This document shows positions 12,956 to 54,524 of a DNA stretch of 64,000 bases, one piece after another (within the stretch, counting starts at the first letter, position 1; each line of letters starts with the position of its first letter). The stretch lies in the NCBI GenBank assembly GCA_963514005.1, contig OY740804.1, positions 19,592,001 to 19,656,000 of the forward strand. The letters run 5' to 3'. This stretch comes from Raja brachyura. Taxonomy: Eukaryota. The position numbers were made by a program, and so were the translations under genes. A model generated the notes under the pieces. That model saw nothing but the letters and a program-made list of their open reading frames with translations, made no database searches and was not told the origin of the DNA.

Positions 12956-15830
12956 GGTTTGACAAGTTCTTTCAGAGCAACGTGTGAGTAAATGCAGTAT
13001 ATTTTGTATAACAGCATGGGATTGGGATAATATGATAGTTTGATTGTAATGGCAATATTGGTGGGCACTGGCATCTCAGTGCTCTGGAGCACAGATATTA
13101 GGTGGAGGTAAAAGAGGAGATTAGTTACGGTATTGATTTGTGAGAACAACTTGGCAGGCCTTGGAATACTCCAGGAAAATGTTCTGTGATGCTATATAGA
13201 TAGACATGATAATGTGGTGATCATTTTGATGGGATTACACTTTAGGAGGAATTAGGGAGATTACAGATAGGTGTGGGGAAAAATAGGGTTGTAATAGGAG
13301 ATGATTTGACATGCCTAATATTGACAGCGATGGCCTTAGTGCTGAGGGATTAGATAAGACATTTGTTCTGTGTGTCCAGGGAAGTTTTCTCAAGCAATAT
13401 GTAGATGACCCTGTGTGTAGGGAGGAACTGCAGATGCTGGTTTACACTGAAGATCGACACAAAATGCTGGATTATCTTCATCAGACTGATGAAGGGTCTC
13501 GACCTATTTTTCTCCAAAGATGCTGCCTGACCTGCTGAGTTAATCGTATGTGTGTGAGACGGGGGATGTCTCCCCCCCCCCCCCCCATGTTTTGAGAGGT
13601 GGGGGAGTATCTCCCCCCCCCCCCCCCCCCATGTTTTGTAATACGGTGGAAAAAAACTTAAAATCTCCGCTTTCCGCGAGACAGTGGGGGTGACGCTTTC
13701 TAAGGGTTCAATCGGCCCATTGGCGGGGCCTTTCATTGCCGCCCGGCGCAGCTTAAAATCAAACTGCTGCATCAAGACGATCGAGGCTCCAGAGGTTGAA
13801 GCCCCTGCAGGCAGATTTTAAGACATGCCGGGCGATGAACGGCCCCGCAAACGGGCCGATTCAAGCCCCACGATTTGGGGTGGACGAAGCTGTTGTTGCT
13901 GGAGTTCAGAGTCGGTCACCAACCAGGTCAGCTCCCAAGGTCAGCTGCCCACAGGGCCCACAGCCAAAGCCTCCGAAGCTGTGTGTGTGGGTGTGTGGTT
14001 TTGATAGCGATGTCCGCCCCACTAACCTTTAACTGCAACAGCCTTTCCCAATCAAACATTGCAAGTTCTATCCTAATCCCATTAGGTTGGTTCCTCTTTG
14101 AGAAGTAAAAATGATATACACACTTACGAATTAAATTACACAGGCAAAAAGAGGACATCGTATTTTTCTGGTACATAAGGGGAATCTCAAAAGCTTCAAA
14201 CTATATTAAGAGCAAATGGATAACTGGTGAGAGAGTAGGTCCGGTGAAGGATCAGTGTGGGAATTTTTATGTGCCACCGAGGGAGTTGATGAGGTCTTAA
14301 ATTAATACCTCATTTGCATTTACTGTGGAGCGTGACATGGAAACTGGTGAGTTCCGAGAAGATAACAGTGGTAACCGGCAGCACATCAACATTATAAAAG
14401 AGCGAGTGCTACTGGAGAGGATTCCAAGAGACAGGGTCTATCTGCATTTAAAAAAAAACAAGGATTATTAATCGAAAGATACAGCATGGAAACGGGCTCA
14501 TTGGCCCACTGAGTCTATGTTGGGGAAATTCCCAGGATCAAATCACCTGGATCCCAGGGTTAAAAGAGACGACTTTGGATTGTCAACATCCAATTTTCCA
14601 TAGATGATGCAACAGTTCCCACCAGTTGGAAGGATGCAAATATTACTGCACTGTTTAAGAAAGGAGAGGGGGGGAAACGGGATACTACAAGCTCAAGTTC
14701 AAGGTAGGCTCCGGGCATTACTGGAGTTGCAAGGGATCATTTCAGATTTTCACTACAGTAGTGGGGATGGTGGGAGTTCTCTCCAAGTCGCAGGGCAACA
14801 ATGAACAGTGACCATGGTTTAAGTACAACAGTGGGGAAGGTGGAGTAGATTCCAGTCCCCAGTATAGTAGGTGAGGCCAGCGAGGCGGATGTCAGTTTGC
14901 TCCCATTTTTGGTGGAGAGGACAGGGGTTCACTACCAGTTCCCAGTCCAATAGTGGGGAGGGGAGAGGGTCACACCCAGTTCCCAGTACAATAATGGGAG
15001 GGAGTGAGGGAGGGATGCACTACTACTTCCCTGTATGTAGTGGGGAGGGGAGTATTTCACAGCCAGTTCCAGTACAGCAGAGGGGGGAGCGGGTGTCACA
15101 CCCATTTCTCAGTACAGTGGTGGGGAGGGGTGGGGACAGCAGGAACTCGATAAGCTATGATCTTTTGCAAGATGTAAGCTCGAGGATCCGAATCGTATCA
15201 ATCTACTTCTGCCTCTGGAAAATATTTCTCTTTGTACCTCTCATCATCCTGTCCCATCGATTTAAATCCACCTCCCCCTTCCCCCCCCCCCCCCCCCCCC
15301 CCACCCCCTTCTCTGATGTGACCAACCCCACTCCAAACTTGTCCACATTCCTGGATCTCAAGCAACAAAGGCAGGGATCCCCTCCTCTTCACCCCCTGTC
15401 CCTCCCCCATCAGCGATCTGTGAATGTGCATTCCAAGGATCTGCCTCAAGCTCCCTCTGACCCCCCCCCCCCCCCCCACACCGGACATTCTTTCATTTAC
15501 CTCGTGTTCCCTCGCCTTGTCACTTTGTCCAATCTCTCTCCTTCATCTGCGGACTGGGTCACATTTGCCATGTCTGTTCCCTCCTGACCCGTCCGTCGAT
15601 ATCTGGCTGCAGGCTGTAACTTCCTTCCTCTGCCCCAGTGCAGAGAGTGTTCACTCTGTTCCCTCCGTGGGCTCACTGTGTGATGCAGGAACTGTGGGCC
15701 GGGCCTCTCTCAGAGCCAGGAGCCAGACGATGGGCCTCATGCCCTGCTCCTGTGCTCTGTGATTCTCCCAGCTCCGATTCCTCCTCCAGTTCCTGTGCTC
15801 TCCTGCTGACTGCCTCTCTTGTCTCCTCAG

Positions 15831-17381: not shown

Positions 17382-18742
17382 GGGTTACACAAAAAGCTGG
17401 AGAAACTCAGCGGGTGCAGCAGCATCTAAGGAGCGAAGGAGATAGGCGACGTTTCGGGTCGAGACCCTTCTTCAGACTGGTCAGGGATCAGGGAAACGAG
17501 AGATATAAACAGTGATGTGGAGAGATAAGGAACAATGAGTGAAAGATATGCAAAAAAGTATTGGTGATAAAGGAAGCAGGCCATTGTAAGCTGTTTGTGG
17601 TGTGAAAATGAGAAGCTAGTGCGACTGGGGTGGGGGGGGGGGGGGGGGAGATGGAGAAGGAATGTCAGGGCCAGAGGGCTGAGGGAGAGGTGGGGGGGGA
17701 GGCAGTCTGGGTTAACAGAATTGAGAAAATTCAATGTTTAAGCCCAGAGGATGCAGACTCCCCAAGCGGAATATGAGGTGCTGTTCCTCCAACTTGCGGT
17801 GTTGATCACTCTGGCCGTGGAGGAGGCCCAGGACCGAGAGGTCGGATACGCAGTGGGAGGGGGAGTTGAAGTGCTGAGCCACCGGGAGGTCGGGTTGGTT
17901 ATTGCGGACCGAGCGGAGGTGTTCGGCGAAACGATCGCCCAGCCTCCGCTTGGTCTCACCGATGTAGATCAGCTGGCATCTGGAGCAACGGATGCAGTAG
18001 ATGAGGTTGGAGGAGATGCAGGTGAACCTCTGTCGGACTTGGAATGACTGCTTGGGTCCCTGAAAGGAGTGGATGGGGGAGGTGAAGGGACAAGTGTAGC
18101 ATCTCTTGCGGTTGAGACCAAGTGGAGGCTGGTATACATCGGTGAGACCAAGCGGAGGCTGGGCGATCGTTTCGCCGAACACCTCCACTCGGTCCGCAAT
18201 AACCAACCCGACCTCCCGGTGGCTCAGCACTTCAACTCCCCCTCCCACTGCGTATCCGACCTCTCGGTCCTGGGCCTCCTCCACGGCCAGAGTGATCAAC
18301 ACCGCAAGTTGGAGGAACAGCACCTCATATTCCGCTTGGGGAGTCTGCATTCTCTGGGCTTAAACATTGAATTTTCTCAATTCTGTTAACCCAGACTGCC
18401 TCCCCCCCCCACCTCTCCCTCAGCCCTCTGGCCCTGACATTCCTTCTCCATCTCCCCCCCCCCCGTCGCACTAGCTTCTCATTTTCACACCACAAACAGC
18501 TTACAATGGCCTGCTTCCTTTATCACCAATACTTTTTTGCATATCTTTCACTCATTGTTCCTTATCTCCCCACATCACTGTTTATATCTCTCGTTTCCCT
18601 GATCCCTGACCAGTCTGAAGAAGGGTCTCGACCCGAAACGTCGCCTATCTCCTTCGCTCCTTAGATGCTGCTGCACCCGCTAAGTTTCTCCAGCTTCTTG
18701 TGTAACCCTCGATTCTCCAGCATCTGCAGTTCCTTCTTCAAC
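17382..18742. mobile_element. Penelope-like element: inverted pair of GIY-YIG endonuclease 3' ends
   Basis: NLIYCIRC..LIYIGETKRRLGDRFAEH..GLN encoded on both strands; near-perfect ~580-bp inverted arms; TSD AACCTACAAACCTG at 17368-17381 and 18743-18756. Confidence 0.92.
18615..18642 (+). ncRNA. Minimal type I hammerhead ribozyme motif in the Penelope terminal repeat
   Basis: CUGAAGA-A-GGGU(CUCG)ACCC-GAAA-CG-UC; identical copies on the minus strand at 17448-17475, 19062-19089 and 36222-36249. Confidence 0.6.
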
Positions 18743-21468: not shown

Positions 21469-21753
21469 AGCCTGTGTCAGGAACACAGATCTTGGTTCAG
21501 CGCACCGGCATCTGCAACTTCACCCTGACCTGCTCCGTGACCTCTGGTGCCCCCACCAGCTTCAGGTGGTGGAAGGGAGGAGAAGCTCTGGGAAATGACA
21601 GCACCCATCACCTTCGGGGACACGGAGAGATTATAGCAGTTCATCATACAGCAAAGGACAAGGATGTTGTGTACAAGTGTGAGGCCAAGAACCCGAGCAG
21701 TACAGGCACGGCACAGGTCCGGCTCAAAAACGTCTGTAAGCAGACCACATCTG
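21469..21753 (+). CDS. CD2/SLAM-family receptor, exon 3 (IgC2 domain, four Cys)
   Basis: CAG acceptor; G|GTGAGT donor; 285 nt, phase 1/1; EPVS..CNFTLTC..FRWWK..YKCEAKNPSS..VC. Confidence 0.92.
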
Positions 21754-22224
21754 GTGAGTGTCAAAGGGGGAATTGTTTTTTAGAAAGGAGCTGAGATTCC
21801 TTCATACCTGTAGTGTATTTGGGTGCTTTTAACTGACTTAAAAGAACACTCGGATACAGGAGTAAACTAACAAGCTTCTTTATTCTAGGACTTCACCTTG
21901 AGTCTCCCCCAGCGCATGCATCCCCTCGCACAAGACATAACATATGCCAATTATATCACATACATCACACTGCTCCCCCTTTAACTTGGAGGCAGGTAAC
22001 ACCATTTACATTATATACATTACACTGCTCCCCCTTTAACTTGGAGGCGGATAACACCATTTTGTTTACATTAAATATAATTGATTAATTATATTATTAC
22101 AGTCATCTTACATTACATCCATATAACTGTAATAATCATATCTAAACTTAGCACATAATTTTTCATTCCACTCATCTTCCTTAAACCACATACTTTATGT
22201 AACACATAAACCCCTTGCTTTATG

Positions 22225-22760
22225 TGTTATCCTTTTCCGTTCCCTTCTGTGTAAATTGCGCACTCTTTCTAATCACTCTAGTTCTACCTGTATCTCTGCC
22301 TCTTCCTTTTTAAATATCCTAATCTAATTTGCAGATTTCTTCCTGTTCCTGATATTCTGCTAAAGTTAACATTTCCTTCTCTGCTTTGTTTTCCTCTGTT
22401 TCTGTTCCTTATTTGTAGGTGGGATCTGACACATGACTGCAGGTATTCGTTTTCTAGCAGCTTCCTCTGTCGCACAATTTCCTGGTGCTGCGTGTTTATC
22501 TGCTCTTGCTGTACAATAACATTCTGCAATGCATAACCATTTGTCCATTGCTCAGTGAAGGAAGCTCCATGCTGGACTATAGTGAAGTGTCCTAATCGCA
22601 ATCGGTCCTGCATACTTTTGGCTCGACCGACAAGCCTCTCTTCTTTAGACTTTTCTCGTAACAGCTTTTTGCTCATCGTCGCACATTTATTTAACCGTAC
22701 TTTGTATCATTTAAGCCTTTTCTGTTGTTCATCTATTTGTCTTCTTAAATCACCTTTCTG
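22225..22760 (-). pseudogene. TLK2: Captured intronless tousled-like kinase coiled-coil fragment (TLK2-like), frameshifted
   Basis: [82 protein letters not shown]. Stops before the kinase domain. Confidence 0.9.
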
Positions 22761-23782
22761 GTTATTCATCAAGAAGTAGGATCTGTATTGTCTTTGCAAT
22801 ACAACAGTGGCTTTGATTTGCGCTCTGTATAGTTTTCTTACTACATAAGCACGGTAGTGAGACTGCACTACAACTGTTGTATATTTCAGTTTGAGGAAGT
22901 TTTTCCTATATCGTTTAAGTCTTTTGTATTGTGCATCTATTTGTCTCCTTAGGTCTTTCCTATACCAAGTCATACAAAGTACTGACTGAACTTTTACAGT
23001 AGCCCTCTTTTGCTTAATCCAATGCCTAACCACATACCCTTGTAGGCAGCCTGAATGGTAATGGTTGCATGCCTCATTGACTGATTTTGCACAAACTGGG
23101 AATGCCCTATTTTGCATGCTTTGTACCATCTCTGGATCAAAATGACTGCTTGTCTCATTGCTCTGTAGCGTACCCTTGATCGGTAACCACGGTATGCAGC
23201 TTGCAGAGTGATTACAGCCGCCTTTTGCATCAAGAAATGTTTTCTTGTAATGCACATCATTAAGACTGACTTAATATGGTGTGTCGCCTTGATTTTCTCA
23301 ACCAATTCGCTGGCTTTAATCCCACGGTAGAAGACCTGAATACAAACCACTGCTTTTCTCAAACTATTATAATGTCTCTCTTGGACATCTCTTATCTGGC
23401 AAGCTCTATATTGCTGCTGTACTGCAATGGCAGACCTGCATAGTTTCTTGAAATACTGACGCTGTTTATGCATCTGATAATACGTCTGCATGACCTTGGC
23501 AGATTTGAGCATCACCCCAATTGCTTTCGAACAAGCATTCCTCGGTAGGCAGCCTGAATCAGCACAACACTGCTGTGTACCTTCATGTAAGTCTTGCGAT
23601 CACTTTCCATTTGAAGGTGTGCCCTATAATGGGTTTGTACTATTATAGCTGCCAATCTCATTGCCCTGTATGGACGGTATACTCTGTGCCTTCTAAATGC
23701 TGTTTGCATTACCATTGCTGCCTTCTGTTTGTTCTGGATCTCTCGCCGTACCTTCATACCCCTGAATGCAGCTTGAATGGTT
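22760..23782 (-). pseudogene. ASPM: Captured ASPM-like IQ-repeat fragment, frameshifted
   Basis: Serial IQxxYRG repeats with ASPM-type spacing in ORFs 23512-23757, 22994-23515 and 22707-23255. Confidence 0.8.
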
Positions 23783-24320
23783 AGCTGTATTTCACCCTCG
23801 TTAGACCTTATCTGGACTACGCAGTTGCAGCTTGGGACCCATACATAGATAAAAACATTTCATCCATCGAACGTGTCCAAAGACAGGCCGCTCGATTTGT
23901 TACTAACACCTACGATAGAGAAGCGACTGTCACCAAACTTCTGAATTCTCTGGGGTGGAACCCTCTCCAAGACAGACGTGAAGCTCACCGTTTGACCTGT
24001 TTTTACAAAATGTTAAATGGTCAGCTAGACATAGATCACAAGACCTACACCAACCCCAAACCAATTAGGAGCAGACGAGGGCATTCGATCCAATTTGTGG
24101 TCCCAGCCTCAAAGACAGATGTGTACAGCAATTCGTTCTTTCCACGCACTATTAAAGCATGGAATAATCTCCACCAAGCCACGGTTGCCCAGCCAGATGC
24201 AACTAAATTTAAAGTGACACTTTCTTCCCAATAACCCTCTCTGGCTAAACCCCTCCCTTCACCACCTCCAGTTTAAATTCCAGTTGGAATATTTTGGAGG
24301 ACCAAGTAACCAAGAACCAA
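23783..24320 (+). mobile_element. CR1-group (L2/Crack/Daphne-like) LINE 3' fragment nested in the LTR element
   Basis: YFTLVRPYLDYAVAAWDPY..IERVQRQAARFV and SFFPRTIKAWNNL; (AACCAAG)n tail; GGTT on both flanks. Confidence 0.85.
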
Positions 24321-24758
24321 GGTTGCCTTCTGGATGGCAATGTCCCTTTCCATTTGACTTTTGTCCCTTTGCCTTTGACCTTTGGCCTTTTCCACTTGAC
24401 CTTTGTCACTTGGCACTTGACTTTTGTCACTTTGCCCTTTACTTTTGTCCTTTGAGGAACTCCCTGCCCTCTTTAGTTTAGGCTCCTTGCCTATGGATAC
24501 CCTTGGAGGTTTTGGCAAGAAATGAGCCATTAATGCCTTCTTACACTCCTCATACATTTTGTCTGTGGGCTTTGCTGGCAGCAGTAACATACGCGAGGTC
24601 TGATAACCCTCTCTTCCTAAGCCTAATATGCTCCATGCTCTCTTCTCCTCTGCAGCGATATCATTGGAAATGAACGAAGCCTTCAAGACTTCGGTCCATT
24701 TCTCAAAATTACACCCAGAATCTAACTGGGGCACCTTTCCTACAATTTGAAAAATCAT
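24321..24758 (-). pseudogene. Gypsy gag N-terminal stub followed by a low-complexity linker
   Basis: FEKWTEVLKASFISNDI..LGREGYQ..LLLPAKPTDKMYEE..LMAHFLPKP resembles vertebrate Gypsy gag N-termini. Confidence 0.75.
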
Positions 24759-25212
24759 GCTAGCTGTTGCTATTCAGGTGCACTATATTCTGTTCTCTCA
24801 CTGTTTTCTGCACTGGACTCAATCCACTGACTATTACCAATTCTTATAATAATAGATTTACACTATTAACCAACATTTCATGTCAATAGCCATTAAGAAC
24901 ATTTTTAACCATATTCCTTCTATGCACACAGATTTACTATTAATAACGGTGATCAATGCATTACATTCAAACAGTCCTGCTTTTACTGTGCCCATGCATT
25001 ACATTCACAGAGGGCTTTTATTATGAAGTATTTCACAGCTCCAGCTTGTGGTCTGTGGACTCTGGTGCATCCTCGACCTCTCGAGCTGTCTCCACCAGTA
25101 CCTTTGCTGATGGCCTCACCGGACCTCCACTTTTTTGTTGCTTTTGCTGGCTCCCCCGGGCTTCACCATTACTTTTGCTGCCGCTGGCTCACTGCCGAGT
25201 CGACTCCCGTTG

Positions 25213-26139
25213 CTACGCTGACTTGCCTGCTGTCTCCCTTGTACGCCCTGCGGAAGGTAAGTCGCTGCTGCTGGTCCCACTGCTCGTCTCGTCGCTAGCT
25301 AACTGGCACGCCTGGCTGCTCGGCTTGTCGGGACTGTGCCCCGCTGTCGGGGGCTGGGTAAGCGCTGTGTCCTGCTTCTCTCGCGCGGACCCGCTTCTCT
25401 CTCTCTCGGCCGGCTTTCTCTCGCGACCGGGCTTTCTCCACTTCCGGCCGTCTCCCGCGACCGGGCTTTCTCCGCTTTTTCCCCCTACCGGGCTGACCCT
25501 GCTCCTGACTGGGCTGAAATGCTTGAGTGCTGTGTCCTGCTTCTCTCGCGTGGACCCACTTCTCGCTCGGGGGTCGGATTTCCTCTCGCGTCCAGGCTTT
25601 CCCCGCTCTCGGCCGTCTCTTGCGACCGTGCGCTGTGTCCCGCTTCTCTCGCGGGGCCTGGTCCACTTCTCTCTCGCAGTCGGCTTTCCCACTTGGTCGG
25701 TCCGCTTCTCTTGCGTGGCCGGACCCTCTTTTCTGCTCACGGTTGGGCTGACTCTGCTCCTGACCGGGCTTTCTCTGCTCGCGGTCGTCTCCTGCGACCG
25801 GGCTTTCTCACACGACTGGTCCGCTTCTATCCGGGCCGTTTTTTTAACTCGGCCGGTCCGCTTCTCACGCGGCCGGCTTTCTCCCTCGACCGGGCTGATT
25901 CTTCTCCCGGCCGAGCTTTCTCTCATGACCGGGCTGACTGCTCCTGGCCGGGTTGACTCCGTTTGTGTCGGTGGCTTCTCCGGACCTGCCCGTGACCTAC
26001 CCGGTACTAGGCCCTCACTGGACATTGGTGGCGGCTCCTGGGCCTGGCTGTGGGCTACACAGCCCTGGAAAACGTTCAAAGTCGGTGGCGGTCTCCGGAC
26101 CTGTCCGTGGCCTACATGGTACACGGCCCTGGAACTCAC
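25213..26139 (-). other. GC-rich degenerate repeat region with an Arg/Ser/Pro-rich open frame inside the LTR element
   Basis: 308-aa ORF with recurring SPVRSRVSP and REK units; the opposite strand is also open. Confidence 0.35.
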
Positions 26140-27299
26140 CCGAAGTCGGTGGCAGCTACTGGGCCTCTACTGCCCCTTTGCCGTGGCTGCACGGTCCTGG
26201 AAAGCGTTCCAGGTAAGTTGACACTGTCGCTGTCCTGCTGGTTAGTTTTCCAGCTTTCGGCTGCGTACTTCGGTGACACTTACTTACTGCCCCACTTGTT
26301 TTCCTCGCTTCCTGTTCCGACCTTTCCTTTCTTTGGCGCCAATTCAAAACCATATGGCGCTAAACCTTTTTGCTTAGTGCTGTTCCACTTTGTTTCCATT
26401 ATACAACCTCTTCTTTTAAACTTTTTTTTCTCTTGACAGCCCTTCTTCTTTGTTCTTTTCTGTTCTTTTATCCTCGGTGCCTTGTTATCCTTGTTGTGTG
26501 TTTTGGTGTAACAATTCACCTAAAACCTAGCTGTACAAAGATTATTCAGCTTGAGGAATTCGACAAAAAAAACTCAGGTAAAATGTATAACAATCCGAAG
26601 GACGACATTTTGACACCTAGACACAACTTAGAGATAGCCTGACAAACTCGCCGACTTGTACAGCTTTAAACTACAGTCCCGTGCTTAGAGGGATCTGTAG
26701 GCCTCTCATGTCCAGCTCGCAAACAACTGCGACACAACTCCGTATCTACTGTTTAAACTGTTAAACAATTCTGCGTGTTGCAAAACAGTCCTGCGGGTGA
26801 GTTCACAAACTCCATCCCATCCTCGTCGCCAATTGTAGTGTATTTGGGTGCTTGGAACTGACTTAAAAGAACACTCAGATACAGGAGTAATCTAACAAGC
26901 TTCTTTATTCTAGGACGCCACCTTGAGTCTCCCCCAGCACATGCATCCCCTCGCACAAGACATAACATATGCAAATTATATCACATACATCACAGTACCC
27001 AAGGAGTTTATTTTTATGATTTCATCGATTTGTTGGGACCTGGAACATCAAGCTGTGACACTTTCCATTGCCATTCCATTGATGAAAACAGGGTTGTTGA
27101 TCCTTGGCTTTTCCCTCCTGAAGTCAACAACCATCTCTTATAGAAACAAAGAACTGCAGATGCTGGTTTCCAAAAAATAGCTCAACGTGCTGAAGGATCT
27201 CAATGAATCAAGCTTCACCTCTGGAGAACATGGATAGGAAACTTTGCAGGTCAGGTTTCAGCTCCTTGGCCTTGCTGTAATTGAGAGCAAGATTGGTGC

Positions 27300-27945: not shown

Positions 27946-29600
27946 ATGACGATCATCAAAATGCAGATGTCATATGCCAGTGAACTTTACAGTGGTAACT
28001 GATCTGAGAGCCCCTTGTCCAGACCTCCTGGTGAAGAAGCTGGATTGGGAATGGAGATTTCACCAAATGACTACCAAGTCAAAGCAGCCAACCAGTACCT
28101 TCAAATTCTTCACTGATGCCTGGCCACATTGAAGACTGGAATGGTTCCCCCTCCTCGAGGATGGAACTGAAATCCACCACTTCAAACAATGCATTTACCA
28201 CAGTTAATGATGCTCAAGATATATAACTGGCTCCGACTACATATTATCTCTGTACCGCCTATTCCCCTGGCATCAGTCTGAAGGGTCTTGAACCAAAACA
28301 TCACTTATTTCTTCTCTTCAGAGAGCATCATGCCTGTCTCGCTAAGTTACTCCTGCATTCTATGTCTATCTTTGATTTAAACCAGCATCTGCAGTTCTTT
28401 TCTACACCTTCTAACTTCTATATTTAATACTTGACTAATGAAGCCAGTGTGCCGAAAGCCGAAATTCTTCCATAGTGTGATTGAAGTCTGCCTGAGAGTT
28501 TGCAGCCTCTGCTTGCATATTGGAAGGTTTGCTCCTCAAGTTCTGGTTGCACTTCAGACCGTGCTCCTGATCTTTGGGCACCCAGTGTGGGCCTCGGTGG
28601 GTCTGTTAGGGAACGTACGCGTTGGTCTGCTCCTGGGTCCAGCCCAGATGGCATTTCACAGGTGCAGCTGTGCGTAGTCGAAAGTTCCGCCCTGACTACC
28701 AGATCCTCTTTGGAGGTTATGTTCATATCTGGGTGACATTGAGAGGCAATGTGCAGCATCTACTGGCTGCTTGGGGGCTGCCTGGGAGCAGAGGACACTG
28801 CAGTGGCTCAAGTGTGTCGAGATAAGGTTGTTGTAACTTGAAGTTTGTTGATCGTATACTGTATGAATACAATCCTGTATACCTGTACGTGTACAAATAT
28901 AATGTATACTGTCCTAGTGTGATGCTTGTAATCGTGGAATTTCCTTTAAAAAAGAAAACAACTGTGGTCTAACTCAGAAACTGGCGTAATATATGGAGGG
29001 GGTAAAGTGAATGGTGATTGGAGAGGATAGTGGGGTATTGGAGAGGATCGAGGGGAATTGCTCTGGATGGAGGGTGAAAGAGGATAGCGGGATTGGAGGG
29101 AAGTGATGTATGGGGATATTTGAGGCAATTGAGGAACATGGAGGGTGGAGGAGGAAAAGGAGGGGAGTGAAAATAAAAACCACTGCAGTTTCCCAAAAGC
29201 ACGAAGCATCCGTGGAAAGAGAAACAGTTCGCGTTTCACATGAAGAACTCTTCATCAGACCTGAGAGACGAAGAAATGTCAGTATAGGTGGCAGTGAAAT
29301 GTGAGGGAGGGGATGGGTTGGAGTCTAAGGTGGGATGAGGGCGTGTGGCAGATGGGAGATGGTTGAGTTACTGTGGCCGTGCGACCTATTGCTGATGTGG
29401 TTCTGGCCACTGGGACGTGCCCAACAGGGCTGGCTGTCCAGGGAGAGGAAACAGGATGGCACTGGTTTGGGGTTTAGTGGGGAGAGATGGGAGTGGCAGT
29501 GGGGACATGATACTCGGGTGGGGTGGGAGTGGATCGATCCACCCCATGTCACTGGGGGAGACGATGGGGTTGGAGTCACTGAGTCTTTTCTCCTCAACAG

Positions 29601-29780
29601 GATTGCCGTGGTGGGTGATAATGCTGATCGCCATTGGGGTTCTGATTGCGATTATTGGAGTCTTCTTCATCGCTTACGTCTGCATGCTGAGTGCAACACA
29701 TGTGACGTGGGCCGAGCTGCGTGCCGGCTGGGTCAACTGGCACCAAGAAGATCCAAAGAGTTGTGCTTCCTTCTGTACCC
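29601..29780 (+). CDS. CD2/SLAM-family receptor, exon 4 (transmembrane and juxtamembrane)
   Basis: CAG acceptor; C|GTGAGT donor; 180 nt, phase 1/1; WWVIMLIAIGVLIAIIGVFFIAY. Confidence 0.85.
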
Positions 29781-30066
29781 GTGAGTGTCTGCGCCAATCT
29801 GGGGAGTGTGGGGAGATCAGGGGAGTGCAGAACAAGGGGTAGGAAGGGTGGGGGGAGCTGATAGGGGAGGGGCAGGGAATGTGAGCAAGATGATAGAAAG
29901 GGCAGGAGAGAGGAGACTCAGAGGAGTAGGTGGGAGGTGCGGGGTTGAGACCGAGATGGGCAGAGAATGGAAGATGGGGCAGGATGTGTAATGTGGAGTT
30001 GGACTGAGGGTTCCAGAAAGCAGATTGCTGATTACAGTCTTGTAACCTGTGTTCATCCCCCTACAG

Positions 30067-30126
30067 TGTTGTGGAATCCAAAATCAGTCATCTAGCTTGG
30101 CCAGAACAATCAGATTAACAGGAACG
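30067..30126 (+). CDS. Exon 5 (cytoplasmic tail); in-frame TAG at 30093-30095 gives a ~287-aa product
   Basis: CCCCCTACAG acceptor and G|GTAAGC donor are conserved in the inverted paralog. Confidence 0.6.
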
Positions 30127-30199
30127 GTAAGCAACAGCAAGGTCCCCAGCGGGGGTCTCCTGTAGCCCATCACTGACACCCCATAGTGGAACCAGGAAC

Positions 30200-31530
30200 T
30201 GAGGTCCCCCACAGACCCAGTTACTGGGGTACACTGTCCCCCACAGACCCAGTTACTGGGGTACACTGTCCCCCACAGACCCAGTTACTGGGTTACACTG
30301 TCCCCCACGGACCCAGTTACTGGGGTACACTGTCCCCCACAGGCCCAGTTACTGGGGTACACTGTCCCCCACAGGCCCAGTTACTGGGGTACACTGTCCC
30401 TCACACACCCAGTTACTGGGGTACACTGTCCCCCACAGACCCAGTTACTGGGGTACACTGTCCCCCACAGGCCCAGTTACTGGGGTACACTGTCCCTCAC
30501 ACACCCAGTTACTGGGGTACACTATCCCCCACAGACCCAGTTACTGGGTTACACTGTCCCGCACAGATCCAGTTACTGGGGTACACTGTCCCCCACAGGC
30601 CCAGTTACTGGGGTACACTGTCCCTCACACACCCAGTTACTGGGGTACACTGTCCCCCACAGGCCCAGTTACTGGGGTACACTGTCCCCCACAGGCCCAG
30701 TTACTGGGGTACACTGTCCCCCACAGGCCCAGTTACTGGGGTACACTGTCCCCCACAGGCCCAGTTACTGGGGTACACTGTCCCCCACAGGCCCAGTTAC
30801 TGGGGTACACTCCCCCACAGGCCCAGTTACTGGGGTACACTGTCCCCCACAGGCCCAGTTACTGGGGTACACTGTCCCTCACACACCCAGTTACTGGGGT
30901 ACACTGTCCCCCACAGGCCCAGTTACTGGGGTACACTGTCCCTCACACACCCAGTTACTGGGGTACACTGTCCCCCACAGGCCCAGTTACTGGGGTACAC
31001 TGTCCCCCACAGGCCCAGTTACTGGGGTACACTGTCCCCCACAGGCCCAGTTACTGGGGTACACTGTCCCCCACAGGCCCAGTTACTGGGGTACACTCCC
31101 CCACAGGCCCAGTTACTGGGGTACACTCCCCCACAGGCCCAGTTACTGGGGTACACTGTCCCCCACAGGCCCAGTTACTGGGGTACACTGTCCCCCACAG
31201 GCCCAGTTACTGGGGTACACTGTCCCCCACAGGCCCAGTTACTGGGGTACACTGTCCCCCACAGATCCAGTTACTGGGGTACACTCCCCCACAGGCCCAG
31301 TTACTGGGGTACACTGTCCCCCACAGGCCCAGTTACTGGGGTACACTGTCCCCCACAGGCCCAGTTACTGGGGTACACTGTCCCCCACAGGCCCAGTTAC
31401 TGGGGTACACTGTCCCCCACAGGCCCAGTTACTGGGGTACACTGTCTCCCACAGACCCAGTTACTGGGGTACACTGTCCCCCACACGCCCAGTTACTGGG
31501 GTACACTGTCCACCACACCCAGTTACTGTG
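30200..31530 (+). repeat. 32-bp minisatellite (CCCAGTTACTGGGGTACACTGTCCCCCACAGG), ~41 units, in intron 5
   Basis: Direct tandem array; the 492-aa ORF is a by-product. Confidence 0.97.
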
Positions 31531-31764
31531 AAGATGGGGCATGTGTTGTCATCTTGACGTTTTCCATGGCATTTTGTGACAATTTGAGTCTCGGAATGGG
31601 CAAACACACAAGAGTAAGCCCCGGGGGTGCATGTGTCGAGTGGGACATGGACAGTTGGTATTAAGCTGCTGCTTTGTGAGGGAAGAGGGGTGGAGTGGGG
31701 ACACTGAGAAGTGTCTGTCAATGGGCACTCGCTGGTCTCCTCGCCTCTGCTCTCTGTCCTACAG

Positions 31765-32700
31765 AAATGGCGGAGATGCTGTGATTGAAGAATGGATTGG
31801 ACATGGTTCGGCAGCTGAGACAGAGAGATCCCACTCACAGACACCGCCTGAGAAGAGACACCAGCTCAGTCACCCCTTGACAGAGAGACTCCAGCTCACG
31901 GACATCTGCTACCTCCATTGGGCAGTGAGTGCCTCTGCACGTGCCCAGTTACTGGGGAACAATGCCCATCTCCAGTGCAAAGGGAGGATGGTGGGGGTGT
32001 TTCCCTCCGAATGGAACCTCGATCTTTTTCTCATTGGGCCACTTCGGAGTAACCGTGTTCAACACCAGGGGTTCTACAGTGACCAGTGGTGACCCCACCC
32101 CCAGTCTCCCTGACTCTCTGTCCAAGACTATCATATGTAACTACATCTGCTCCGTGTTCTGTGTTACTGACTGTATCGCCGCTGATGTTCCATAGCCGCT
32201 CTAGGGACATTCGACCCAGCTTTAGTTTTAATTTATTTACATCCTGGGGGGAAGTGCCAGAGTTCAGGAACGAATGAGGAGCCATGGAAAATCCAGGGAG
32301 ACCCCAAGGCAGGCACAAAATGCGGGAGAAACTCAATGAGACAGCCAGCATCTCTACAGAGAAGGAATGGGTGATGTTTCGGATCGAGTCCTCACCCAGG
32401 AAGACAGATGTACTGATTCTGGCACCCCTCTCCCCATTGCTATGGGAAGAGGCCATTGACGTCCACACCTCCCTAAAACTCCTGGGTCCCTATCTCTAGG
32501 GCTGAAGCAGGGTCACCGATTGCCAATGGCTTATTGCTGATGTTTTACGTTCTCTGCCAACACTAACCGGTGAACATTTCTTCAGTGAAGCTACTCCCAC
32601 ACAGCCTTTCACGGCCTGGTAATGTGGTGCATCAGCCACTGGGAACGCTATTCACCGGTTCACTGTCACACATTCAGAAGGTCAGACAGAATCTGTGGAG
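31765..32700 (+). other. Terminal exon 6 (EMAEML-stop at 31782-31784 in phase 1) and 3' UTR
   Basis: Strong polypyrimidine tract and CAG acceptor; conserved in the paralog. The 3' end is uncertain. Confidence 0.55.
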
Positions 32701-32715
32701 AGAATCACAGAGTAA

Positions 32716-33294
32716 AGGGCCTGTCCTACAAGCATGCAACTCTATGCGATGAACACGATCAAACTAGAAGCGGGGGCCGAGCCAAGGTCGGGTGATCCCC
32801 TGTACAGGGCCGTTCCCACCAGCATGCGCGTGTATGCGCCAAGCGCAACCAAACCGGCAGCGGGGACAGCGCGGAGGTCGGGTGAGTGGCGCAACGCGGT
32901 GCAAAGTGAGGCGAACTTGGAGCAAAGTCTAAGGTAAGTTCGCCAGGACAGAGAGGGGCACACAGAGAGGGGCACAGAGGCACACACACACAGAGGGCCA
33001 TGGAGCCACACACATAGAGGGTCACGGAGGCACCTACAGATAGGTTGACGGAGGCACAACGTCGGGGCGGTGTGTAATGCGTCGAGGCGACTGCGAGCCG
33101 ACAAGCTGTTGCCGCGCGGAATTTTTGAACATAGTCAGTTTTTCGGAGCCCCGCGCGATGTCGGGACGAACTCCGCACAATTCCGCACGGCTCCGGCGAT
33201 CGAAGTGGGACCGGCCCTGCGACGCCGGACGGCTCAAGCGACCACGTTAGGTCGCGCTAATCGCATAGAGTTGCATGCTTGTAGGACAGGCCCT
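32716..33294. mobile_element. PIF/Harbinger-type MITE
   Basis: 35-bp perfect TIRs AGGGCCTGTCCTACAAGCATGCAACTCTATGCGAT; TAA/TTA flanks; the paralog shows the empty site with a single TTA. Confidence 0.88.
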
Positions 33295-36200
33295 TTATTG
33301 TACAAGATAGCACCACCTTACTCACAATTGTCCTGTGGTGGTTTGTGTCAGGTTTCATTCAGATTGATTTTATATTTCACAAGTTATTGACATTTAAAAA
33401 ATTTCAAAACCCCATTTTGAGAACAATAACTTGACAGATGCTGCGGCAGTTGATGGGAGATTCTGGTAATTTCCAGATATGATGTCACAACGGGATCTCA
33501 TTTACGTAAGCTGCCGTAAACAGTCCTCCAGCCAATCAACAGTGTTCCACCCAGTTCAATTAGAGATTTGTTGTGAAGAGAGGGAGTAAGTGTGGGAGGG
33601 GAGGAGAAGAAATGTTCTTTAAACATTGTGTTTAATGGAGGACTGCAATAGGGGAGAGGTGAATGAGTGACTGAGGGTAGGGAAAAGGAGAGGGAGGGAG
33701 TGGAGGAGGAAAGGGGGAGGTGGATTATTGCATTGGAGGAACGGGGCCCAATGGGTCCCACTTGGTCTAGTATCTTATCTATCATATCTATATACTTTTA
33801 AAACTCTGGGTGTATGTCACTTTGCCTTTGAAACATATCTCCTCAAAACCAGATGCAAAAACACAGAGATTTTTACAACTTCGGTAAGGATAATAATAAT
33901 AATACGTTTTATTTATAGGGCGCCTTTCAAGACTCTCAAGGACACCTTACAATTAACACAAGCATAAAACAAAAACACATATACAGCAATAATACACAAT
34001 TCGAAGAGAGAGCAGCGGCAGCCAATCGCGCTAGCGTTCACTCTCGCCTCCGAAGCCATCTGCAGCACACCAATCAAGATAAAACACAACATAAAGAATT
34101 TAACATAAAACATTAAAAACATCCCCCCACAATGGTTCCCACTGTGGGGGAAGGCACAAAGTCCAGTCCCCATCCCCACCCTAAGTAGTCGGGCCTAATG
34201 AGGCCTCCACAGTCGCCGCTACGGAGGCACGATGTTCCCGGCTGTTCTCACTTGGTGATGGTACAAGAAAAAGCAAAAAAAGTGTTAAATGACATAAATG
34301 ATATAAAGAAACAGTTTAAAGTATACTGTGTGTGTCCACCCCCGGTGGGAAATTTCAGGTGTGCTTCCGTAGGTGTAAATTGCATTTAGCTCCGCCCCTT
34401 ACCAAATAATATTGTAGAAAAGAAAAAAACAGGACAGAACAGAATATAGTATGCACCAAAAAAAAACCAGAACATGTACAGTAAGTAGTTTGTCTAATAG
34501 CTTAGTCTAAGTAAATATTTACTATTTAAATACCGTATTAAAATTTTTTTTTAATTTAAATATTGATATTCATATATTAAACACCCTCTCCCCCTCGCCA
34601 GGACAGAGAGGGGCACAGAGGCACACACACACACACACACACACAGAGGGCCATGGAGCCACACACATAGAGGGTCACGGAGGCACCTACAGATAGGTTC
34701 ATGGAGGCACAACGTCGGGACGGTGTGTAATGCGTCGAGGCGACTGCGAGCCGACAAGCTGTTGCCGCGCGGAATTTTTGAACATAGTCAGTTTTTCGGA
34801 GCCCCGCGCGATGTCGGGATGAACTCCGCACAGCTCAGGCGATCGAAGTGGGACCGGCCCCGCAACGCCGGATACTCAAGTGACAACGTTAGGTCGCGCT
34901 AATCGCATAGAGTTGCATGCTTGTAGGACAGGCCCTTTATTGTACAAGATAGCACCACCTTACTCACAATTGTCCTGTGGTGGTTTGTGTCAGGTTTCAT
35001 TCAGATTGATGTTATATTTCACAAGTTATTGACATTTAAAAAATTGCAAAACCCCATTTTGAGAACAATAACTTGACAGATGCTGCGGCAGTTGATGGGA
35101 GATTCTGGTAGTTTCCAGTTATGATGTCACAACGGGATCTCATTTACGTAAGCTGCCGTAAACAGTCCTCCAGCCAATCAACAGTGTTCCACCCAGTTCA
35201 ATTAGAGATTTGTTGTGAAGAGAGGGAATAAGTGTGGGAGGGGAGGAGAAGAAATGTCCTTTAAACATTGTGTTTAATGGAGGAGTGCAATAGGGGAGAG
35301 GTGAATGAGTGACTGAGGGTAGGGAAAAGGAGAGGGAGGGAGTGGAGGAGGAAAGGGGGAGGTGGATTATTGCATTGGAGGAACGGGGCCCAATGGGTGC
35401 CACTTGGTCTAGTATCTTATCTATCATATCTATATACTTTTAAAACTGGGTGTATGTCACTTTGCCTTTGAAACATATCTCCTCAAAAACCAGACGCAAA
35501 AACACGGAGATGTTTACAACTTCGGTAAGGATAATAATAATAATAATACATTTTATTTATAGGGTGCCTTTCAAGACTCTCAAGGACACCTTACAATTAA
35601 CACAAGCATAAAACAAAAACACATATACAGCAACAATACACAATTCGAAGAGAGAGCAGCGGCAGCCAATCGCGCTAGCGTTCACTCTCGCCTCCGAAGC
35701 CATCTGCAGCACACCAATCAAGATAAAACACAACATAAAGAATTTAACATAAAACATTAAAAACATCCCCCCACAATGGTTCCCACTGTGGGGGAAGGTA
35801 CAAAGTCCAGTCCCCATCCCCACCCTAAGTAGCCGGGCCTAATGAGGCCCCCACAGTCGCCGCTACGGAGGCATGATGTTCCCAGCTGTTCTCACTGGGT
35901 GATGGTACAAGAAAAAGCAAAAAAAGTGTTAAATGACACAAAGAAACAGTTTAAAGTATACTGTGTGTGTCCACCCCCTGGTGGGAAATTTCAGGTGTGC
36001 TTCCGTAGGTGTAAATTGCATTTAGCTCCGCCCCTTACCAAATAATATTGTAGAAAAGAAAAAAACAGGCCAGAACAGAATATAGTATGCACCGAAAAAA
36101 AACAGAACATGTACAGGAAGTATTAAAGAAGGAACTGCAGATGCTGGAGAATCGAGGGTTACACAAAAAGCTGGAGAAACTCAGCGGGTGCAGCAGCATC

Positions 36201-42510: not shown

Positions 42511-45169
42511 TTACCTTTATTCCTTGGAAACCTTGCTATTGTTTTGATGTAATTAGGAGGCAGACATGATCCCAGAGTCCCCGCTGCCTAGCGACCATAA
42601 AACTAAGTGTGGAATTGGTCAATTTGCATCCAACCTCAATGTCAAACGTGCATTGATTGGACAATTACTACTCGGAAAATTGGATGTTTTCTCATATTTT
42701 TAAAAAATGTGCAGGTTTTAGTCTTGACGAATTTCAGGTATGATTTAAATAATATTTTTACACAATATGTTAAAAATTCAGGTAGTTCCGTGAGTTGGAT
42801 CACGAACTTGAACGAGAAAGCTCCTCGGCCCACGGCTTACCATTGGTCGCTGGGGCTCGGCTTTCGCCGGCGCCAGGGGGGTTGGCCAGCAGCTGGGGCT
42901 GGCGCTTCTTCTCCGCGCTGGCTGTGGCCTGGGGCCGTTGATGTCGTCGGTCCAGGGCTGTCAGTTGGCCCGGTGGGGCAGGTGGAGTTGAGCTGGGGTC
43001 AGAGCTTATCTCTGTGCTGGCTGTGGGCCTAGGGCCACTGGTGTCGTCATTCCAGGGTTACCCCGGATATCTCCGGCCGCCCCCCCGGGCGGGGATGAGA
43101 CACTTGAGGGGGGGGGGGGGGGGTCCAGTGGTGGTTCGACAGCGCTTCTGGTGCTGGGTCCCAGAATAGATCCTGGCTGTGGATGAGGCGAGTGTCTGTG
43201 TGCGGACTCTCCCGTCTCCCGCTCGCATCTGCGCCCCCTCTATTGCTGTGACACCCCGCTTTCCCACTACCTGTTCCTTTGGGGGGGATGAGGAGTTGAC
43301 CATTCATGGGAGTTTCTCTGGAATCGAGCATTCAGTCTTGCTGAGCAGGAACCTACCCTGTGAAGAGTGTGACACATTCACACTCTTCAGCACCACCCAG
43401 TCAATATTTACGCAATGGCTGAGAAATAACTAGTAACATTCACACAGTGCCAGGCGATGATCATCCTCAACAGGTGCATCTTACCACCTGCCCCCAATGT
43501 TTATTGATATTTCCATCATCCAGTCCCGCCCATCAACAAGCTGGGGACATGATTAACCTGTAACTCCAATTGACACCATGGCTACAGGAGCATGTGAGAC
43601 ACTGGGTCTCCTCTGGGAGACAGTATGAAAGGAGGCTCTCCACTCTCCACTATTTATTGATTATAGCTCAACATTCACACCATAAACCCATCCAAACTCA
43701 TCTACAAACTCCTTGACCTAGGAGTTGCAGAGAAAAAGTCCAATGTCCGCAATGAGGCAGATTAAAATATCAGTCTCCACTAATTACAATGCTGAGAAAA
43801 TATATTCTGCACTCTGGCATTTTTCTCTTTGCTCTACCTGTTGTGCTTGATTGACTGTATTCATGTACTGTATTATCAGGTTTGATTGGATAGAACAAAA
43901 GCAAAAGCTCAAAGGCAACTAATGGTGGGTGATAAATGTTCAGCTTGACAGTCACATCAAGATTCTTGTAAAATGAAAAAAAAACTCTTCCCGACGTCTC
44001 TAAAGCCGATCAGCCCGACACCCCTCTGAGATCTCCAAGCTCCTCCAGCACCAGTACTCCCCCCCCCCCCCCCCCCATATCTCTGTAACCTCCTCCATTT
44101 CCGCAGATGCCCAGCAACAGAATGATTTGGAAGAAGCTTTTAGAGATTTTATTATAAAATATCTAGATTAATGAATTACATAAAAATCTGAAGTAACTTA
44201 ATAAAAAACCTGCTGTACACACTGGGCAGGTCTGTAGAGAAAAATTCAGATGAAACCCTTTGGACCTGGTACAATAACTCTGTGATGCTGTCTGACCCAC
44301 TCGATGTCTGACAGTGAACAGGTGAATAATGTTCCCAGTGTCTGGTGCACCACAGCACCAGGTAGTGAAAGGCTGTGTAAGAGTGGCTTCACTGATGAAA
44401 TGTTCACCGGTTAGTGTTTAACGTAAAACAGCAGCAATAAGCCATTGGCAATAGGTGACCCTGCTTCAGCCCTAGAGAGCGGGACCCAGGAGCTTTAGGG
44501 AGGTGTAGACAGTCCCTGGCCTCTTCCCATAGTCATGGGGAGAGGAGTGCCAGAACCTGGGTGGGGTCTCGACCAGAAACATCACCCATTCCTTCTCTCC
44601 AGAGATGCTGCCTGTCCCATTGAGTTACTCCAGCAGTTTGTGTCTGCCTTGGAGTCTCCCTTTAATTGTCTTTGGTTCCTCACCCGGTCCTGACCTCTGG
44701 CACTTTCCCCCGGGATGTAAATAAATGAAAACTAAAACTGGGACAAATGTCTCTGGAGCATCTGTGGAACATCAGTGGAGAAACAGTCAGTAACACAGAG
44801 CACAGAGCAGGTATGGTAACAAACCACAGTTTGGGATAGTCAGGGAGACTTGGGGTGGAATCACCACTGGTCAATGTAGAACCCCTGGTGTCGAACACGG
44901 TTCCTGCTCAGAGGGCCAATGAGAAAAAGGATCGAGGTTCCAGTCGGACGGAAACACCCCCACCATCCTCCCTTTGCACTGGAGATGGGCATTGTTCCCC
45001 AGTAACTGGGCACGTGCAGAGGCATTCACTGCCCAATGTAGGTAGCAGATGTCCGTGAGCTGGAGTCTCTCTGTCAAGAGGTGACTGAGCTGATGTCTCT
45101 TCTCAGTCGGTGTCTGCGAGTGGGATCTCTCTGTCTGAGCTGCCGAACCACGTCCAATCCATTCTTCAA

Positions 45170-45189
45170 TCACAGCATCGCTGCCATTT
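45170..45189 (-). CDS. Inverted paralog, terminal coding exon (EMAAML-stop)
   Basis: Reverse-complement homolog of 31765-31784. Confidence 0.5.
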
Positions 45190-45424
45190 CTGTAGGACAG
45201 AGAGCAGAAGTGAGGAGACCAGTGAGTGCCCATTGACTGACACTTCTCAGTGTCCCCATTCTAACCCCTCTTCCCTCACAAAGCAGCAGCTCAATACCAA
45301 CTGTCCCTGTCCCACTTGACACATGCACCCCCGGGGCTTACCCTTGTGTGTCTGCCCATTCCGAGACCCAAATCGTCACAAAATGCCATGGAAAACGTTG
45401 AGATGACAACACACGCCCCATCAT

Positions 45425-45915
45425 CACAGTAACTGGGGGTGGTGGACAGTGTACCCCAGTAACTGGGCCTGTGGGGGACAGTGTACCCCAGTAACTGGGT
45501 GTGTGGGGGACAGTGTACCCCAGCAACTGGTCGTGTGGGGATTCTTAACCCAGTAACTGGGTCTGTGGGGACAGTGTACCCCAGTGACTGGGTGTGTGGG
45601 GGAACAGTGTACCCCAGTAACAGGGTGTGTGGGGGAGTGTACCCCAGTAACTGGGTGTGGTGGACAGTGTACCCCAGTAACTGGGCCTGTGGTGGACAGT
45701 GTACCCCAGTAACTGGGTGTGTGGGGGACAGTGTACCCCAGCAACTGGTCGTGTGGGGATTCTTAACCCAGTAACTGGGTCTGTGGGGACAGTGTACCCC
45801 AGTGACTGGGTGTGTGGGGGAACAGTGTACCCCAGTAATAGGGTGTGTGGGGGAGTGTACCCCAGTAACTGGGTCTGTGAGGACAGTGTACCCCAGTAAC
45901 TGAGTGCGTGGGGGA
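45425..45915 (-). repeat. Shorter, more diverged copy of the 32-bp intronic minisatellite
   Basis: Reverse complement of the unit at 30200-31530. Confidence 0.9.
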
Positions 45916-46022
45916 CTGTTCTGTCATTTCCCACCTGTGGCCCTTTCTCAGTTCCTGGTTCCACTACGGTGTGTCAGTGATGGGCTACAGGAGACCCCCG
46001 CTGGGGCCTTGCTGTTGCTTAC

Positions 46023-46082
46023 CGTTCCTGTTCGTCCCATTGTTCTGGCCAAGCGTGGTGACTGGTTTTGGATTCCACAAGA
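46023..46082 (-). CDS. Inverted paralog, cytoplasmic exon (LWNPKPVTTLGQNNGTNRN), open
   Basis: 60 nt, AG/GT bounded; homolog of 30067-30126. Confidence 0.6.
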
Positions 46083-46368
46083 CTGTAGGGGGATGAACAC
46101 AGGTTACAAGACTGTAATCAGCGATCTGCTTAATGAGACCCTCTCTCCAACTCCACATTACAAATCCTGCCCCATCTTCCATTCTCTGCCCATCCCTCTC
46201 ACAACCCTGCACCTCCCACCTACTCCTCTGAGTCTCCTCTCTCCTGCCCTTTCTATCATCTTGTCCACATTCCCTGCCCCTCCCCTATCTGCTCCTCCCA
46301 CCCTTCCTACCCCTTGTTCTGCACTCCCCTGATGACCCTACACTCCCCAGATTGGCACAGACACTCAC

Positions 46369-46548
46369 GGGTACAGAATGAAGCACAGCTCTTTGGATCC
46401 TCTTGGCGCCAGTCGACCCAGCCGGCACGTAGCTCGGCCCACGTCACATGTCTTGCATTCAGCATGCAGCGGTAAGCGATGAAGAAGACTACAATAATCG
46501 CAATCAGAACCCCAATGGCGATCAGCATTATCACCCACCACCGCAATC
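46369..46548 (-). CDS. Inverted paralog, transmembrane exon
   Basis: 180 nt, AG/GT bounded; WWVIMLIAIGVLIAIIVVFFIAY; 7 aa differences from 29601-29780. Confidence 0.8.
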
Positions 46549-47588
46549 CTGTAGTTGGTGAGGAGAAAAGACTCAGTTACTCCAAACCCATCGTCGCTCC
46601 CAGCGACACGGCGTGGACAGATCCACTCCCACCCCACCCCAGTATCATGCCCCCACTGCCACTCCCATCTCTCCCCACTAAACTCCAAACCAGTGCTGCC
46701 ATCATGTTTCCTCTCCCTGGACAGCCAGGCCTCTTGGGCACGTCCCAGTGGCCAGAACTACATCAGCAACAGGTTGCACGGCCACAGTAGCGCAACCATC
46801 TCCCATCTGCCACAAATCCTCACCCCACCTTAGACTCCCCCTTATTTCAACACATTCCCTCCCTGTATACAGTCTGCCCAATCATTAGAATCTCATAGAT
46901 TAGATTATTTTGAATTCAGTGAATTCAGTGGTCTTACCAGCCCAATCTCCCAGAGACCACTCAGTCATACTGCATGGAAACATGCTTTTCAACCCAATTT
47001 GCCCATGCCGACCAAGAAGGCCCATCAACACTAGTTCCACCTGCCAAAATTTGAAGAAATATTATATAATACAATTGCTCAGATAATAACGTTCATGTGA
47101 GGAACTTATTTTAAGTTGCAAGAGAAGGGCTTGGAGTTGGGGTTTTCAGAAATATATGTCCCCACAAAGAAATAAAGTGCAGAGAACACACACACATGAG
47201 ACCAGATGGCTTATCATAACATGGAAATGTTGATCTGAATAGGCATAATTTTATTTGCTTTGAAACAGCTATAACGCTGTCAGAAGTTGTATTTGGTTTA
47301 GTTTGGTGTTTAGAGTATAGGTTGATAATGGGGTATCTTCTCAAGACATGGGCACCATTTGCCATTTCTTTGTGACACATCTTTGTGCTCTGGTGTGTCA
47401 TAAAGAGGTTTTATGGTTGTCTATATTGGGTCTTAGACAGCAAGGCTAGATAATAATCTGTGATCTGGTTTGTGCTGTTTAAATGTATTTATGTTGAGAT
47501 AAGAGATAAGGCATAGGTGATGGTTGTGTGACCTTTGTAAAAGGGTGATTTCTTATGTTTATAGAAAACTGAGAAAGTAACTCAGTTT

Positions 47589-53219: not shown

Positions 53220-54524
53220 ATCAGCCAGCGATGTCTGATTCGCGAGCAGCAGAATCCAGGTAAGGGCTTGCCCTGTGAACCAGGTAAGACCCCTTTACCA
53301 GTAGGTCCCTTTGAGACCTTGCAAATGGATGACATTGAATTGGAAAGATGTCAGTGTTATAAGTGTTCTTGCAATTATTGATGTTTTTAATAAATGAATA
53401 GTTAGCGTAAGCGCCTCTCATGTGTGTGGTAGCATTATGTTTTTGAATTAATGCTGAAGTTCATATATGTGATAAGTCTGTTGTTTGTTGTAAACCATAT
53501 GTTATAAGTGTAGGTGTGTGTGGCCCTTTAAGAAACTGTAAGCGGGGAGATGAAGTTATGTACAGCTACCCTCTGTTGTAAGGTAATGCTTTATGCTTTG
53601 TTTCCTCTCAATTTAAAAGGGGAAAGTTGGCAACTGTAGGTTGCTGGGTTTTTCTGATGTTTCTTTTATATTTCTTTTCAATAAGTTAATTTGGAAAATT
53701 GTTACTAGTATATATTTATACTGGGAATTGGAAATCGGGAATAGTGGGGAGAATGGATTGAAATAATTGGAAATAAGTTATTTGCTGAAACACGACCAGC
53801 TTTTATGGTTTGTTTAGATAAACATTCTGGTTGGAGAAGGGTAATAAATCAATGGAGCCCGGGAAAAATGGAACTGGCTGACACGGGGTTAATCATGAGT
53901 TAAAGTGGTATTTTGCTAAACCACTGGGTTTTTCTGGATTATAACATCTTTGATCACTCCTGTTTGACAGAAAAAGTGAAAGTTTGTAAGGTTTAATTTA
54001 ATCTGTTGTATTTTACCTGTTTTTAAGATGCAAATAGTATCATGTGACAATCCAGCTGAGGGGACACAGGTCTTTCGATGTGGATTGATCTGATTGTTTG
54101 CTGACATTTTCAGAAATACAATGTATAGGATACTATGGAGAACTATAGAAGGGGGGCAGAATAAGAATAAGTACTCCTTCTGGTACGGCACGAATAACGC
54201 CTGCGGAAATCATATATGGTCGACCTTTACGGATACCATGGAATGACCATGCCTCCGTGATGGTCCATTTCCACCAGATGACTGAGGAAATGACATCCTA
54301 TGTGTTAACTTTAATCAGTGCTTTGCGAACTTCTCATTCACAGGTCAGGGCTGCCTTTGGAACCTGGAATGTCACCAAGATTGACTATTGCAATGGGATA
54401 CTGCGTCAGCCCGATCGGCAGGTGGACTTAGATAACCAACACCTGTGGGAATTACCCTGTTGGTTTCAGGAGTGCAAATTTGACTTTTTCTGCAGATGGA
54501 ATCCCTTGGAAGGCAGTTCGGCAA

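Follow-up and report, generated by a model that had tools for sequence, protein, structure and literature searches.

In gag-onc transducing retroviruses, host cargo is fused to gag in defective, helper-dependent genomes. LTR-mediated retrocopies have been described in metazoans, including chimeras of several parents and cases of further retroposition (Tan et al., 2016, PMC5131818). The telomeric retrotransposons of Drosophila capture fragments of host silencing genes, reported to serve anti-silencing (PMC13534243). A literature search, outside which most subscription papers lay, found ASPM, TLK2 and a retrotransposon nowhere together and no case from a skate. The locus analyzed here lies in a 64,000-nt stretch of Raja brachyura DNA (the window) and contains fragments of ASPM and TLK2 inside a non-autonomous LTR element of 5.2 kb, which lies on the minus strand (21809–26994; Table 1). 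With a probability of about 80%, it is a dead non-autonomous element of Ty3/gypsy type that arose in the skate lineage through LTR-mediated retroposition and was later altered by an insert templated on the element itself. LTR-mediated retroposition of several parents is already a known kind of event, of which the skate element is a fish example.

Table 1. Features of the cargo-bearing element, from its 5′ to its 3′ end (positions in the window).
Feature	Position	Strand	Description
5′ LTR	26834..26994	-	161 bp, TG...CA; 153/161 identical to 3′ LTR, no indels
Primer-binding site	26814..26831	-	begins TGG, two bases past 5′ LTR; sequence-based prediction
Long 5′ leader	24770..26810	-	GC-rich degenerate tandem repeats at about 25200-26000
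Truncated gag N-terminus	24490..24758	-	ATG at 24758
7/21-bp tandem-repeat spacer	24341..24455	-	open, in frame from gag to ASPM
First ASPM codons	24321..24341	-	IAIQKAT (host ITIQRAT or IMIQRAT); upstream of secondary insertion
Secondary insertion	23785..24320	+	splits ASPM near its start; short-repeat tail; ASPM resumes at next host codon beyond
ASPM IQ-repeat cargo	22755..23784	-	collinear with Amblyraja ASPM 2378-2703; Pfam IQ
12-nt ASPM word, first copy	22953..22964	-	11/12 identical to 22899-22910
Short TLK2-derived piece	22911..22952	-	42 nt; matches main copy 22748-22707 at 35/42
12-nt ASPM word, second copy	22899..22910	-	duplicate of 22953..22964
ASPM-to-TLK2 switch codon (Gly)	22752..22754	-	both parents: Cys, then G-starting codon (Ala or Asp)
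TLK2 cargo	22228..22751	-	residues 195-373, intronless, coiled-coil region, no kinase
TLK2 exon junctions in cargo	about 22650/22649, 22513/22512, 22371/22370	-	crossed without insertion
Element 3′ region	21970..22227	-	AT-rich; polypurine tract tandemly duplicated; second tract adjoins 3′ LTR
3′ LTR	21809..21969	-	161 bp, TG...CA

The LTR pair is about 95% identical and free of indels, and the element is flanked by ATACC and GTACC, a 5-bp target duplication with one mismatch (4/5). The primer-binding site presumably matches the 3′ end of tRNA-Ser. An Rfam search of the long leader and Pfam searches of its ORFs returned no RNA or protein family. For the gag N-terminus there was no Pfam match and no PDB match below E 0.6; its look-alikes in the Atlas are DUF7041, DUF4939 and Retrotrans_gag, with a top score of 0.95 that serves as a lead only. 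The gag look-alike, and the form of the primer-binding site and polypurine tract, indicate that the element may be a Ty3/gypsy-type LTR retrotransposon. Pol is absent from the whole element, the ORFs of which lack reverse transcriptase (RT), RNase H and integrase. With gag truncated and pol gone, gag-pol has, as read from this element itself, been replaced by the cargo rather than interrupted. The secondary insertion, which we take to be a LINE 3′ end from its looks, carries a 149-codon open frame; no clear target duplication and no Pfam match were found for it. At 21970–22080 (minus strand) a tandem duplication takes in the polypurine tract together with the first LTR-like bases, apparently another slip of RT.

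The element lies antisense in a host gene of immune type, about 55 nt into the intron that follows an Ig-domain exon (21477–21755, plus strand). A transmembrane-like exon is located at about 29597–29780 (plus strand), and no second Ig exon was found within the 64-kb window. The region of the transmembrane-like exon is spanned by an inverted paralogous block (29320–32693 versus 44284–46838, 80–94% identical). A complete-looking Ty3/gypsy element at 8329–12967 (plus strand), with 185-bp LTRs that are 97% identical, encodes gag, protease, RT and RNase H in one 966-codon frame and integrase in the next frame; its gag is unrelated to that of the cargo element, and it was rejected as a helper for this reason. 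Other repeats in the window are nested long inverted repeats at 17382–18708 (268 nt at 96% and 282 nt at 99%), a 32-bp minisatellite at 30200–31520, a 1.64-kb tandem duplication at 32952–35833 (93–98% identity) and a 25-bp satellite array at 54500–56600.

Both cargoes have their best protein matches in skates. The ASPM part is identical to Amblyraja ASPM at 257 of 326 positions, with two 1-nt deletions and no stops, and nests within the skates with support of 100/99, on a branch of 0.19 as against 0.046 for Amblyraja; its placement among the skates is weak, with two informative sites versus two. On the end coordinate that we assume for the giant IQ exon 18 of ASPM relative to the captured part, the latter probably lies within this one exon, and therefore provides no evidence of intron loss or splicing. 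Exon 18 holds 67 IQ motifs (PMC10502471). Some skate and shark ASPM models (P0276, P0278, and P0277) are 3700–4160 aa long and contain repeated IQ blocks that align to one and the same part of the query.

The TLK2 part, read by frameshift-aware alignment, is collinear with little-skate TLK2 (P0003) from D195 (22751) to I373 (22228). Identity extends over 137 of 176 aligned positions without any insertion, and the lesions comprise one 9-nt deletion, four 1-nt deletions and two stops. Host TLK2 hardly varies over this region (175–179 of 179 residues in five elasmobranchs), so the divergence of the cargo belongs to the element. A TLK1 parent was rejected, since TLK2 scored 613 (137/176) against 518 and 425 for two proteins that are presumably of TLK1 type, and the TLK1-type insert is missing. 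Assembly error as the source of the frameshifts was also rejected, given that a 966-codon frame remains open in the same window.

A preliminary description of this DNA had proposed that the TLK2 segment is intronless, lacks the kinase and came from spliced mRNA. In human TLK2 the splice sites c.832-1, c.968+1, c.1121+1, and c.1122-1 define exon junctions at c.831/832, c.968/969, and c.1121/1122 (PMC5992133, Table 1), which correspond to skate residues 228, 274, and 325 (offset 49; 9 of 10 anchors identical). Gene-model breaks occur at the same residues in 234 aligned proteins (242 tried), 35 of which end at 274, 12 of which start at 228 and 20 of which have insertions at 325; a bamboo-shark model missing 326–380 also breaks there. 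A fourth junction at residue 347 was rejected, as only two alignment ends and one insertion fall there; it is disfavoured because the bamboo-shark TLK2 model skips residues 326–380 as one block. The cargo crosses the three junctions without extra sequence and does not lie within a single host exon, so its source would be spliced TLK2 RNA; capture from spliced mRNA is thus supported, with the intron positions of the skate gene drawn from human TLK2 and the gene models. The absence of the kinase was also confirmed: the kinase motif of little-skate TLK2 begins at residue 391, and the cargo stops 17 codons earlier, in mid-exon at I373, where the 3′ sequence of the element and the polypurine tract come next. 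No 3′ UTR or poly(A) was seen at this end.

At the main junction ASPM reads N-Q-R-C-A, TLK2 reads A-N-C-D and the element reads N-Q-K-G-D; the switch Gly is also present in a sister fusion, P0126. Since each parent has a Cys codon and then a G here, the two would share about 4 nt of microhomology, a length that 2.3% of random junctions reach. Microhomology, for which the switch points were to be searched, is therefore probable at this junction from the amino acids and is seen at both ends of the short insert described below (4/5 and 4/6). Fusion by splicing at an exon boundary was rejected, the upstream TLK exon edge being near 191–192 and the switch at 194.

P0126, the top match among 1.84 billion representatives, is a 150-aa ASPM-TLK2 fusion with the same junction and 105/127 identity to the element; its span does not include the short insert. 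Derived residues are shared by the two at 17 positions, confined to the window copy at 4 and to the sister at 15, and differ in both at 3. The sister suggests further retroposition of the fusion, although this one record could be an orthologous copy in another skate. The TLK2 cargo differs from host TLK2 by about 10.6% of nucleotides in a simulation estimate, against 2.5% per LTR (upper bound 4.8%; 95% interval for the pair 2.2–9.6%), so most of the change was already there before this insertion, as repeated retroposition would predict.

The second, short TLK piece noticed earlier inside the IQ repeats is real. The insert is 54 nt long and in frame, consisting of 42 TLK-like nucleotides and the 12-nt ASPM duplication, and appears as an 18-codon insertion between WYRKD/E and FLKL of Amblyraja and Rhinoraja ASPM. 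A native ASPM origin was rejected, since the piece is an insertion relative to skate ASPMs and no TLK-like motif occurs in the 120 ASPM homologues listed (of 1086 matches); its local score is 56, versus a maximum of 32 in 500 triplet shuffles. The same structure would result from duplicating 204 nt in tandem and then deleting 150 nt, and brief overlaps (GA.TT and G.TA.A) mark its two ends. The short piece, the main TLK2 copy and P0126 all read K-R-L-K, with the substitutions M206R and E208K; neither R206 nor K208 occurs in the 120 host TLK2 homologues listed (of 1124 matches). The presence of these element-specific substitutions in the short piece indicates that its donor was the already diverged cargo, and it is best read as a copy of the element's own chimera, 150–200 nt away, not as the product of a second switch to host mRNA.

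All four joins preserve the reading frame (post hoc P about 0.015): gag to ASPM, ASPM to TLK2, and the two ends of the insert. The other two frames of the short insert contain stops. Codon-phase bias as the cause was rejected, because shared words are in phase in only 34–36% of cases. The four in-frame junctions hint at a once-translated Gag-IQ-coiled-coil fusion. This copy itself, with two stops, six frameshifts, a 0.5-kb insertion and no intact ORF, is dead. Its lesions would be post-insertion decay if selection had maintained a translated Gag-ASPM(IQ)-TLK2(coiled-coil) fusion in the replicating lineage, a reading that we consider possible but doubtful. In its favour, besides the reading frames, the 47 polarised ASPM changes include no stops, where 3.2 would be expected (P 0.03), and are mildly conservative (P 0.04); among the TLK changes, those in common with P0126 are more conservative than the private ones (BLOSUM +0.33 versus -1.11, P 0.02). 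However, the tests are post hoc, the ASPM signal is confounded by host-lineage change, and the shared/private contrast reaches only P 0.06–0.07 with ASPM added. All 35 TLK changes together fit neutrality in spectrum (BLOSUM -0.24 versus -0.21) and in stops (2 versus 2.9), the total of 2 stops versus 5–6 expected gives P 0.06–0.12, and the six frameshifts of this copy also speak against selection. The earlier statement that only the oligomerisation region was retained serves as a description of the cargo, which is not an intact frame, but its retention as a selected, functional feature is unproven, as the TLK2 substitutions overall fit the neutral null.

CC1 is needed for TLK2 dimerisation (PMC6023931), and human cells depleted of TLK have more HERV and satellite transcripts (PMC7408502); a decoy role is therefore conceivable, with the CC1 of the cargo possibly incomplete. 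It is a speculative and rather improbable extension that a skate LTR family long replicated with the in-frame Gag-ASPM(IQ)-TLK2(coiled-coil) product as a kinase-less decoy, able to dimerise with TLK1/2 and loosening repeat silencing. If true, this would mean that a vertebrate retrotransposon encoded an anti-silencing protein of host origin in the manner of gag-onc. Should the family have kept the fusion frame open, one could test directly whether LTR elements of vertebrates make use of the fragments of chromatin regulators that they capture; otherwise, the locus is a tidy fossil.

The 54-nt insert could also have been made in genomic DNA after the insertion of the element, by templated insertion in break repair, a mechanism of the polymerase theta type, from a donor 150–200 nt away. 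The short local donor, the flanking duplication and the microhomology all fit such repair, and at least four changes of its own in the short piece are compatible with error-prone synthesis. This origin is nevertheless unlikely: the divergence of 7/42 between the short and main pieces is greater than the 5% of the LTR clock (P 0.0045, rising to 0.10 when the upper confidence limit is used), which favours an origin before this insertion, and at the site of the main copy's private stop the short piece still encodes Arg.

The preliminary description had instead envisaged repeated switching of RT between host TLK2 and ASPM mRNAs in the original capture, yielding both TLK pieces at once. Captures from multiple parents with several switches are documented (PMC5131818), and both pieces start at D195 and are flanked by microhomology. 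This view has nevertheless become very unlikely, since M206R and E208K, common to P0126 and found in 0 of the 120 listed hosts, would have to have arisen independently in both pieces, and the same start codon is better explained by copying of an existing junction. Also very unlikely is an L1-type processed TLK2 or chimeric ASPM-TLK2 pseudogene that landed inside an existing LTR element: the element did take a separate secondary insertion, but the cargo is 3′-truncated in mid-exon before the kinase, has no visible 3′ UTR or poly(A), and replaces gag-pol.

For LTR-mediated retroposition with a later self-templated insert, we infer the mechanism (template switching by RT), the order of events and the spread of the family from products that are directly observed. 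During reverse transcription in the particle, RT would have left the 3′ region of the element for a co-packaged spliced TLK2 mRNA, moved on to ASPM RNA at a short microhomology and come back to gag, with the result that most of gag and all of pol were replaced. The chimera would then have diverged and probably been re-retroposed in trans. After some divergence, an out-and-back jump within the element may have placed 42 nt of its own TLK2 start into ASPM, which is equivalent to the tandem duplication and deletion given above, each at few-base homology. This copy would finally have inserted antisense into the intron of the Ig-domain gene and decayed.

As in the retrocopies of Tan et al. (2016, PMC5131818), partial mRNA stands in place of the internal ORFs, both LTRs and a target duplication are kept, two parents contribute to one locus, and the cargo is in sense to the element. 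Intron loss (in the TLK2 part) and a partial mRNA without poly(A) or L1-type hallmarks are also common to both; microsimilarity at switch points (here about 4 nt at ASPM/TLK2, from amino acids) and further retroposition (here suggested by one sister, P0126) may be shared as well. The skate element has in addition an insert templated later on itself, and the ATG of its gag is in frame with ASPM and TLK2 alike. The locus extends two-gene LTR-mediated exon shuffling to cartilaginous fish, and its history can be followed step by step, from capture through divergence and self-templated rearrangement to probable re-retroposition and, lastly, decay; further fish cases may be listed in the supplements of PMC5131818. 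Maize Bs1, as described in PMC5131818, is likewise a multi-parent chimera between LTRs, with copies sharing switch points and a hybrid ORF. From Bs1 a hybrid protein is reported, one of its parents being out of frame, whereas in the skate copy all parents are in frame and there are two stops, six frameshifts and an insertion. The HERV-K capture of FAM8A1 (per PMC5131818) and the gag-onc retroviruses resemble the skate element in being defective, helper-dependent carriers of host cDNA, with gag fused to cargo; in contrast to them, the skate element has no env or infectivity and shows no sign of activity, and its cargo has no catalytic domain. The telomeric elements of Drosophila (PMC13534243) are non-LTR elements with repeated capture, unlike this LTR element, but they share with it the presence, in a transposable element, of fragments of a gene tied to repeat silencing.
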